Shown here in pieces: positions 2,145-2,850 of a stretch of 8,789 nt of DNA. The notes beneath the pieces were generated by a model. The model ran no database searches. It saw nothing but the letters and a program-made list of their open reading frames with translations, and was not told the DNA's origin. The stretch's first letter is position 1; each line of letters opens with the position of its first letter. Where the stretch lies: positions 1 to 8,789 of the IMG/VR virus record IMGVR_UViG_2778261667_000002. One strand, given 5' to 3'. A program made the position numbers and the translations under genes. This stretch comes from a virus (Duplodnaviria; Heunggongvirae; Uroviricota; Caudoviricetes).

Positions 2145-2579
2145 ATGTTCGGTAAATTGTTCGGCAAGAAAGTCGCTTCTGCAAAAGTAGAGCTGAAAAA
2201 AGTTGAGAATCGCGATCTGATGGAGGCCATTATCGGTGGCTGTTTGTTGGTGTCTGCCGCTGATGGTGAAATCGAAAAAGAAGAAACAGCGAAACTTGAT
2301 CAGCTTATCCGCTCTAATCCGCGTCTTAGTCATTTTGGTAACGAAATTACCGCAACAATTACCCGCTTTACCGAGCAACTGGAAGCTGGCTTCCGTGTTG
2401 GTCGCATGAATATCCTTCGCGAAATTGAAGATATCAAAAACGACCCAAAAGAAGCGGAAGAAGTATTCGTTAACATGCTGACGATTGCAGAAGCGGACGG
2501 TGAAATCGAGCCAGTAGAACACAAAGTACTGGAAGAAGTAGGCCGTCGTTTAGGTCTTCGTGTGGAAGATTATCTGTAA
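2145..2579 (+). CDS. TerB-like (tellurite-resistance TerB fold) protein, 144 aa
   Basis: ORF with SD GAGGGA 6 nt upstream of ATG. Two copies of the TerB-type signature (VSAADGEIEKEE... and IAEADGEIEPVE...) in an acidic helical protein. Family call is from recalled motif pattern, not a search. Confidence 0.7.
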   Translation: MFGKLFGKKVASAKVELKKVENRDLMEAIIGGCLLVSAADGEIEKEETAKLDQLIRSNPRLSHFGNEITATITRFTEQLEAGFRVGRMNILREIEDIKNDPKEAEEVFVNMLTIAEADGEIEPVEHKVLEEVGRRLGLRVEDYL

Positions 2580-2743
2580 TGGCAAGCAAGGCACGTATCG
2601 CAATCGCCATTGGTTTTCTCTTGCTGTCCGTGCTGGTGGATTTCACCAGCACAATCCTGTCAGTTTTATCGGACGGGGCGTTGGTGGCAGTGGCTGTAAC
2701 ATTGGTATGGCCGATATTTAAAACAGCTTCGAAGGATCAGTGA
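2579..2743 (+). CDS. Small membrane peptide (54 aa, two hydrophobic segments), translationally coupled
   Basis: ATG overlaps the upstream TAA (TAATG at 2577-2581). Hand translation: MASKARIAIAIGFLLLSVLVDFTSTILSVLSDGALVAVAVTLVWPIFKTASKDQ. Below the ORF-track size cutoff. Confidence 0.4.
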   Translation: MASKARIAIAIGFLLLSVLVDFTSTILSVLSDGALVAVAVTLVWPIFKTASKDQ

Positions 2744-2850
2744 TGGGCTTCTGGGATTTTGCTGACAAGTATCCAATTGTTCTCATTATCATTGTTGCCA
2801 TAGTTGTAGGCGGCATTGTTAGCGCCATTGAAGCACTTAGTAAACAGTAA
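2743..2850 (+). CDS. Small membrane peptide (35 aa, one hydrophobic segment), translationally coupled
   Basis: ATG overlaps the upstream TGA (TGATG at 2741-2745); SD-like AAGGA 6 nt upstream. Hand translation: MGFWDFADKYPIVLIIIVAIVVGGIVSAIEALSKQ. Confidence 0.4.
   Translation: MGFWDFADKYPIVLIIIVAIVVGGIVSAIEALSKQ

Follow-up and report, generated by a model that had tools for sequence, protein, structure and literature searches.

A tciABC-type cassette encoding a predicted TerB-fold protein and two small membrane peptides in a D6-like phage-plasmid

Introduction

The phage-plasmids P1 and P7 carry a small cassette of three genes, annotated as tciA, tciB and tciC in the P1 record and as terB, upf69.4 and upf69.6 in the P7 record. 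The tci names were given by homology in the P1 genome annotation, and we have taken the basis of the naming from the GenBank notes. Here we analyzed a cassette of this kind at positions 2145-2850 of IMG/VR virus record IMGVR_UViG_2778261667_000002 (Caudoviricetes), whose whole analyzed stretch of 8,789 nucleotides (nt) is called the window. On the one hand, the window shows the same gene order, overlapping junctions and tRNA setting as P1 and P7. On the other hand, it has a D6-like backbone with no ban gene downstream of the cassette and no P1-type C1 operator upstream within the window, which differs from P1 and P7, and the TciA of P1 itself is divergent, being only 31% identical to the TciA of the window.

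The first gene product is related to canonical TerB of the terZABCDEF operon (PDB 2jxu). Both belong to the same Pfam family, are all-helical and show conserved paired acidic motifs; canonical TerB has 151-153 residues and TciA 144. In PMC11003894, which cites Turkovicova 2016, canonical TerB is described as a partner of the integral membrane protein TerC. In contrast, the neighbour of TciA is a phage-borne DUF3927 peptide of 54 residues, and TerC, TerD, TerE and TerZ are absent. The Shango system, which combines a TerB-domain protein with an ATPase and a helicase, likewise places a TerB-like domain in a context of phage conflict. However, the window cassette has micropeptide and tRNA neighbours instead of an ATPase and a helicase, and cassettes of its type are encoded by phages, including N4-like ones.

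Two further arrangements are close to that of the window. In Pseudomonas prophages, a TerB ortholog with about 65% identity is encoded at a corresponding position and followed by an overlapping gene for a small membrane protein of the family phrog_27356. This partner differs in that a single hydrophobic helix at the N terminus is combined with a C-terminal domain containing Cys residues, with the pattern C.YYGYQT(D/E)R...VGCMVK...PR.ELR, and these loci have no TciC equivalent. The Schitoviridae phages FSL SP-076 and Pollock have the same two-gene core, with the motif IDFT..M.S.LADG...WPVFK and a 0-nt gap (TAAATG) between the genes. In Schitoviridae (L121 3407-3739, L122 2684-3016), the position of TciC is occupied by a conserved soluble protein of 110 residues, whose gene shares an 8-nt overlap with the tciB-like gene.

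Results

Identity and layout of the cassette

The whole window showed 89.9% identity to Escherichia phage D6, indicating a D6-like phage-plasmid, and approximately 93% identity to phages P1 and P7 across positions 688-3114. By sequence comparison, the locus is the tciA-tciB-tciC accessory cassette of P1/P7/D6-type phage-plasmids. It has already been named in P1 and P7 and hence is not new, so the novelty implied by the initial annotation, which had been made from the sequence alone, does not hold. The three open reading frames (ORFs) given in that annotation were reproduced with the same coordinates and junctions, all on the + strand. tciA (2145-2579) encodes a predicted cytoplasmic TerB-fold protein of 144 residues, tciB (2579-2743) a putative inner-membrane peptide of 54 residues with the DUF3927 domain, and tciC (2743-2850) a putative single-helix micropeptide of 35 residues, for which an alternative GTG start lies at 2740. 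The stop of tciA and the start of tciB overlap in TAATG (2577-2581), and those of tciB and tciC in TGATG (2741-2745).

When the locus was compared with P1-type tciABC, the TerB first gene, the DUF3927 second gene, TciC as the third and the tRNA location were all found, but the placement in the C1-repressed ban operon, with Op72/Pban upstream and ban downstream, was not. The absence of this setting reflects the D6-type backbone of the window: downstream of the cassette lie D6 orf6, orf5, lpa and pacAB, and ban is not there. The tRNA-flanked position, with a CAT-anticodon (Ile2-type) tRNA directly 3', is the same in P1, P7 and D6, and the D6 record annotates only the first two cassette genes.

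Conservation of the TerB and DUF3927 pair

We collected 30 genomic and 80 viral loci with TciA relatives and traced the downstream chain of ORFs in each. TerB followed by a DUF3927-type peptide was found in P1/P7/D6-like elements, Klebsiella, Serratia, Pectobacterium, Dryocola and Symbiopectobacterium, and also in an Aeromonadaceae metagenome-assembled genome (MAG), Photobacterium and a Candidatus Desulfovibrio MAG; in Oceanisphaera, one gene intervenes. Judged from these sequences, the conserved core of the cassette is the TerB and DUF3927 pair. The conserved synteny that the initial annotation proposed to look for is present for the pair, whereas TciC is confined to the P1/P7/D6 group among the loci traced. 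TerB is instead paired with an unrelated protein of 67 residues (phrog_27356, E = 1.2e-42) in one Paracoccus MAG and the majority of the Pseudomonas loci; the gene of this protein has a 4-nt overlap with the TerB stop, and two Pseudomonas loci carry a DUF3927-like peptide in its place.

The positions of the pair in these elements are diverse. In the P2/186-like prophages of Klebsiella and Pectobacterium, it is flanked by the repressor/cox/Fil genes on one side and by replication gene A on the other. In Pseudomonas prophages, the TerB pair lies downstream of a cI-type repressor (helix-turn-helix and S24 domains), on the arm toward the integrase. In a tblastn search of phage genomes, FSL SP-076, Pollock and other Schitoviridae showed the same two genes side by side amid dUTPase, replication-initiation and MoxR-ATPase genes, and lone TerB genes were seen in jumbo Erwinia phages as well as Vibrio and Pseudomonas phages. 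In the phages Fostie, Cyrano and JLK-2012, TciB is likewise accompanied by a TerB of the divergent P1-type lineage. As side observations, a gene matching Pfam Phage_186_Fil (PF10893), the filamentation protein of phage 186, directly precedes the pair in three Klebsiella prophages (L114-L116, around 6685-6912); such a neighbour is of interest because the tci name refers in part to 'inhibition of cell division'. In Pseudomonas prophages (L117 7001-8065 and L118 from Pseudomonas putida; L009-L026), a CsrA/RsmA homolog follows the TerB and 67-residue genes, so that the alternative partner has a global RNA regulator encoded by the phage as its neighbour.

The 1-nt stop/start overlap between the TerB and DUF3927 genes was kept in 58 of 62 distinct loci, even at 35-50% peptide identity, although these loci are not phylogenetically independent. 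The tciB/tciC overlap was kept in all P1/P7-type loci, and the D6 type shows a 4-nt overlap in an ATGATG context. The conserved overlapping junctions fit one co-translated unit, as the initial annotation had argued, and coupling, if it occurs, would proceed by termination-reinitiation. Upstream of tciA, the Shine-Dalgarno (SD)-like sequence GAGGGA was found at 2133-2138 (+ strand); within the 20 nt preceding the start, the most stable anti-SD duplex has -6.1 kcal/mol. The SD-like sequence of tciB (GGAAGA, 2564-2569) is weak and lies within the 3' arm of a small local hairpin, and that of tciC (AAGGA, 2732-2736, + strand) lies 6 nt upstream of the start, with an anti-SD duplex of -5.5 kcal/mol. 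A TerB-DUF3927 fusion (P0034) was considered as evidence of physical association and rejected; both its junction and its C terminus have the appearance of indel artefacts in a metagenome contig, and the same applies to P0002.

TciA

TciA matched Pfam TerB (PF05099) with E = 2.5e-14 and 54 bits (cut-off 24.4) and phrog_632 with E = 3.5e-63, and a profile of TciA homologs matched the solved TerB structure 2jxu (E = 9.6e-13). The AlphaFold2 model of TciA showed six helices with a predicted local distance difference test (pLDDT) score of 88. Its top Foldseek match was the TerB-like structure 2h5n (PG1108), with a probability of 1.0 and a template modeling (TM) score of 0.52-0.59. Based on the model, TciA is predicted to be a soluble, all-helical TerB-fold protein, and the profile and structure matches bear out the TerB-like nature of the first gene given by the initial annotation.

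TciA contains two acidic DGEIE-x2-E motifs at residues 40-47 (nt 2262-2285) and 118-125 (nt 2496-2519). D40, G41, E47, D118, G119 and E125, which form two DG-x-I-x3-E motifs, were invariant across 18 TciA homologs, down to 61% identity. These paired D-G-x-h-x3-E motifs are proposed as a metal site. TciA and its closer relatives have an N-terminal MxFG..GK motif in common, and divergent TerB proteins of the N4-like and P1 types start similarly (MGLFGFGKK, MLGILKK).

TciA is 98.6% identical to TerB of P7. In P1, the corresponding protein (L001 3879-4304) shows the 31% identity given above and a much weaker TerB match of 28 bits, and it is still followed by a TciB that is 83% identical to that of the window. 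From its sequence, P1 tciA looks like a whole-gene allele replacement beside a conserved peptide gene.

TciB

TciB matched Pfam DUF3927 (PF13064) with E = 1.1e-25 and 89.8 bits (cut-off 25) and the 'TciB-like' family phrog_1470 with E = 2.1e-23. It is 100% identical to Upf69.4 of P7 and 83% identical to TciB of P1. The hydrophobicity profile agreed with the two hydrophobic segments described in the initial annotation, which appear as runs of about 14 residues at 7-20 and 33-46 with a polar D-x2-S-x3-S-x3-D segment between them. Both tails are basic; R6 precedes the first run, and the central motif is D21-F-T-S-x3-S-x3-D32 (nt 2639-2674). Grand average of hydropathicity (GRAVY) values were 1.2 for TciB and 1.3 for TciC.

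In 17 of 17 diverse DUF3927 homologs, the core V-x-V-D-(F/S)-x-S-x3-S-x3-D has two Asp residues 11 positions apart, and the tails are basic at both ends with an acidic centre. A near-invariant basic residue (Arg in 16 of the 17, Lys in one) is followed by about 14 hydrophobic residues. The conserved positions i, i+3, i+7 and i+11 of TciB share one helical face. The ratio of non-synonymous to synonymous substitution rates (dN/dS) of tciB was 0.27-0.28 against the P1 and D6 alleles. Considering the positive-inside rule, the charges and segment lengths fit an N-in/C-in hairpin for TciB.

TciC

TciC matched phrog_23152 with E = 9.1e-25. It consists of an N-terminal MGFWDFADKYP followed by a predicted hydrophobic helix at about 11-29 (maximum Kyte-Doolittle score 3.5), in line with the single hydrophobic segment described before. 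Its identity to the P1/P7 allele is 74%, and many IMG/VR contigs contain an identical copy. When 1.84 billion cluster representatives were searched exhaustively with phmmer, a single cluster matched, with 35 residues and 91% identity.

The tciC frame was open in all nine distinct nucleotide alleles recovered, with 35 codons in seven, 34 in one (locus L039, cut short by a premature stop) and 36-37 in D6. Against the P1 type, there were nine non-synonymous and three synonymous differences, which are too few to interpret the resulting dN/dS of about 0.9. All nine amino-acid changes stay hydrophobic or small, and the N-terminal MGFWDFADK is invariant. The D6 allele has an essentially random nucleotide identity of 42.7%; nonetheless, it keeps the overlapping ATG, 36-37 codons, the (M)xFW.(F/Y).DK.P motif and one hydrophobic helix, and its stop likewise falls just before the tRNA. 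The sole PHROG family matched by D6 TciC is the TciC family, over its full length with a weak score (E = 0.17). D6 TciC terminates in RRRK, which points to a probable N-out/C-in orientation. Taken together, it is reasonable, though not conclusive, to regard tciC as a real gene. By their family matches, the dN/dS of tciB and the conservation of the overlaps, the small ORFs are judged not to be chance ORFs.

According to the initial annotation, both small ORFs would be missed by standard annotation. This is correct for tciC only. In the 25 best-matching PLSDB plasmids and in 30 records across 302 matching complete E. coli records, a third coding sequence was never annotated, but a 'TerB family protein' and a 'DUF3927 family protein' are annotated under the match. 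One plasmid with 99% identity has no annotation in the 110 nt that separate the DUF3927 gene from the tRNA, which is called tRNA-Ile there. The D6 record also omits a tciC-like ORF of 37 residues and the adjacent CAT tRNA, of which D6 has a 97.4%-identical copy.

Distribution and mosaicism

Nucleotide identities along the cassette were uneven. Against P7, they were 98.9% for tciA, 98.8% for tciB, 88.9% for tciC and 100% for the tRNA; against D6, they were 94.9%, 72.7%, 42.7% and 97.4%, respectively. tciC appears by these values to lie in a local divergence hotspot. The swapped TerB alleles and the uneven identities indicate that the cassette is a recombination mosaic, which agrees with the highly variable region described for P1-like elements (PMC9603915). 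The variable region that holds the cassette is lost in about half of the P1 subgroup-1 elements (PMC9603915). Among 5,426 complete E. coli genomes, 298 (about 5.5%) contained at least part of the cassette and 128 contained most of it; 297 of the 302 E. coli matches were plasmid-borne.

Flanking elements and expression control

The upstream boundary of the cassette is a tRNA-Ser(UGA) gene (1783-1869, + strand), which is annotated in the D6 record too. Downstream, the CAT-anticodon tRNA (2854-2929, + strand) begins 3 nt past the tciC stop. Further upstream are tRNA-Asn at 1175 and tRNA-Thr at 1253; all these tRNAs were located with ARAGORN. The CAT tRNA is called Met by ARAGORN and tRNA-Ile (ileX-like, lysidine type) in the P1, P7 and RefSeq annotation, and its processing probably generates the 3' end of the tci mRNA. 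As a separate observation, tRNA-Ser(UGA) is an unusual long-arm phage tRNA, to which tRNAscan-SE assigns no amino acid according to the D6 record; in Rfam it is tRNA-Sec-like, with 42 bits (gathering score 47), and the P7 copy has 46.6 bits.

Between the tRNA-Ser gene and tciA, a structured element resembling STnc100/PasD (Rfam RF02076) was found at 1979-2107 (+ strand) with 41.3 bits and E of about 2e-6, below the gathering score of 47. The RF02076 element also lies immediately upstream of tciA in P7 (L002 3291-3406, 43 bits) and P1 (L001 3726-3845, 33 bits), both sub-threshold. It is thus present in three phage backgrounds, including P1 with its different TerB allele. STnc100 and PasD are small RNAs (sRNAs) carried by prophages, and according to a 2026 preprint, TerB genes are common near the PasA and PasC sRNAs. 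The element may represent a leader or an sRNA associated with the cassette, its membership in the module being uncertain.

The C1-controlled ban operator is located upstream of the cassette in both P1 and P7, and the operator note of the P7 record opens with 'controls expression of trnRNA, ...'. The cassette is transcribed in P1vir infection (bioRxiv 10.64898/2025.12.28.696737). In the window, TCTAATAAAT at about 2110-2119 was tried as a C1 operator core and rejected; it is a resemblance only, with no ATTGCTCTAATAAATTT-like site at up to 4 mismatches.

Two side observations concern the surroundings of the cassette. The D6 orf6 and orf5 homologs (3383-3958 and 3958-4350) likewise share one nucleotide between stop and start; they gave no PADLOC match and are only hypothetical proteins in the D6 record. 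The P1 homology starts at 688-725, inside the annotated 'dicF-like region' of P1 (P1 68791-68892), and this start coincides with a terminator-like hairpin and T-run at 691-708; no Rfam match to DicF was found around 688-725 at E below 0.1.

Discussion

We have identified a tciABC-type cassette in a D6-like phage-plasmid and compared it with related loci. Regarding its function, we lean, somewhat beyond even chances, toward an early inner-membrane accessory module that serves the lytic cycle of the phage itself and involves steps of co-translation and membrane assembly. In this model, the tci genes would be transcribed within a long tRNA-mRNA transcript, and ribosomes ending tciA would reinitiate on tciB and then on tciC, which would fix the ratios of the products. 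TciB would be inserted as an N-in/C-in helical hairpin with the Asp-Ser-Ser-Asp stripe toward the periplasmic side, and TciC would be oriented N-out/C-in. TciA may act on the cytoplasmic side of the resulting small membrane complex, like canonical TerB with TerC. Made early after derepression or infection, the module would condition the inner membrane for the lytic cycle, and its most plausible specific roles would be the exclusion of competing phage DNA or colicins, or the buffering of ion or membrane stress. Exclusion and membrane stress had been named in the initial annotation and are possible roles. An early and lytic function is supported by the C1-controlled ban operator of P1 and P7, the early prophage positions and the occurrence in N4-like phages. 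The accessory, not core, nature of the cassette was also proposed there, and it is in agreement with its frequent loss (PMC9603915) and with a CRISPR interference (CRISPRi) screen of P1, in which the cassette was non-essential (PMC10695390); it is dispensable for plaque formation.

Several results weigh against the module for the lytic cycle. In the literature searched, we found no experimental function of the cassette. The AlphaFold2 model of isolated TciB is one continuous helix of 52 residues and not a hairpin. RNA structure at the two junctions was not unusual (z = 0.23 and 1.39), so the overlaps themselves are the evidence for coupling. A TerB of 31% identity beside a TciB of 83% identity in P1 gives no covariation support for a specific contact between TciA and TciB. 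Moreover, no TerB column separates the DUF3927-paired Pseudomonas proteins (L015, L016) from relatives paired with the 67-residue protein. Because covariation gives no support, the functional link between TerB and the peptide is drawn from adjacency and junction conservation. For tciC, a dN/dS of about 0.9 on 12 differences is no demonstration of purifying selection. In terms of expression, no P1-type C1 operator (ATTGCTCTAATAAATTT, up to 4 mismatches) was found in the window, while P1 and P7 have perfect matches. There was also no convincing sigma-70 promoter in the window, and none on the + strand upstream of tciA; the counts of sigma-70 promoters and terminators in 1-3500 were no higher than in shuffled sequence. 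Without an operator or promoter match, early repressor-controlled expression is not supported for the D6-like element itself.

A more general proposal, which we put forward tentatively and consider rather doubtful, is that TerB and DUF3927 form a widespread two-component membrane device of phage-plasmids, P2/186-like prophages and lytic N4-like phages. The Asp-Ser-Ser-Asp stripe and the acidic motifs of TerB might gate the inner membrane or be involved in handling a divalent cation. The device might act early in infection by excluding competitors or stabilizing the membrane, and the fast-diverging C-terminal region of TciB together with TciC might be a lineage-specific specificity subunit.

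Four other explanations were considered, and they are given here in order of falling likelihood. The cassette could be a lysogenic-conversion defence, in which expression from the resident prophage shields the lysogen from phages or colicins in the manner of abortive infection or superinfection exclusion, similar to the Phi/PacB phenotypes of ter or to Shango. The cassette does lie in a variable, mosaic hotspot typical of defence cargo, with locally raised divergence of tciB and tciC, and a TerB-domain protein belongs to the validated Shango system (PMC10250203). In work cited in PMC6799933, ter clusters are reported to give phage inhibition and colicin resistance, and the lack of a C1 operator in the window leaves room for constitutive expression. 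However, a PADLOC scan gave no significant match, including none to Shango (best E = 0.038, PDC-S48), there is no ATPase or helicase partner, and the C1-repressed ban operator precedes the P1 and P7 genes. Being obligately lytic, N4-like phages have no lysogen to protect; since they carry the same pair, it cannot serve solely for lysogen protection, and we consider this defence unlikely. It would be less likely still that only the tciA-tciB bicistron is real and that the 35 codons of tciC are a chance open frame before the tRNA. The dN/dS against the P1 allele, the lack of homologs outside the P1/P7/D6 phage group, the absence of a call in RefSeq annotation and the weak match of the D6 version to phrog_23152 would agree with this. 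The frame is nevertheless open in all nine alleles behind a good SD sequence and a conserved overlapping ATG, the changes against P1 are conservative around an invariant MGFWDFADK, and D6 retains the features at about 43% DNA identity.

The two peptides could also be membrane-damaging effectors, such as holin-like, lysis-timing or type-I-toxin-like peptides, with TciA as a modulator or antidote. Both are short and very hydrophobic, and tciA would have to be translated for the downstream peptides to be expressed. On the other hand, no endolysin, spanin or other lysis gene is adjacent in the window, P1, P2-like prophages or N4-like phages, and the contexts are those of early operons, both of which disfavour the lysis timing suggested in the initial annotation. 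In addition, the invariant polar motif and low dN/dS of TciB are unlike those of a generic pore-former, and CRISPRi knock-down in P1 caused no plating defect (PMC10695390), so we regard such effectors as quite improbable. Genuine tellurite resistance, as the product names would imply, has the homology of TciA to TerB as its sole support, and we give it hardly any credence. None of terZ, terA, terC, terD, terE and terF was found among the window ORFs or in the annotated D6, P1 and P7 regions. In D6-like Salmonella plasmids, the cassette was seen as a moron with an 'incomplete' ter operon (PMC6799933), and a comment on single phage terB genes reached the same conclusion against tellurite resistance (PMC8421299).

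In summary, as a sequence feature the locus is ordinary: an annotated cassette was re-identified, the first two genes of which are routinely called. A real annotation gap is the 35-residue tciC: none of the RefSeq (PGAP) and PLSDB records inspected contains it, nor does the D6 record. The comparison gives a picture in which a TerB gene is tightly joined to a gene for a small membrane protein across very different phages, N4-like ones among them, the partner being interchangeable. This picture narrows the hypotheses to an early, inner-membrane role in the lytic cycle and provides residues to mutate. The value of the finding is as a pointer to the unsolved function of a cassette that is at least partly present in about 5.5% of complete E. 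coli genomes.

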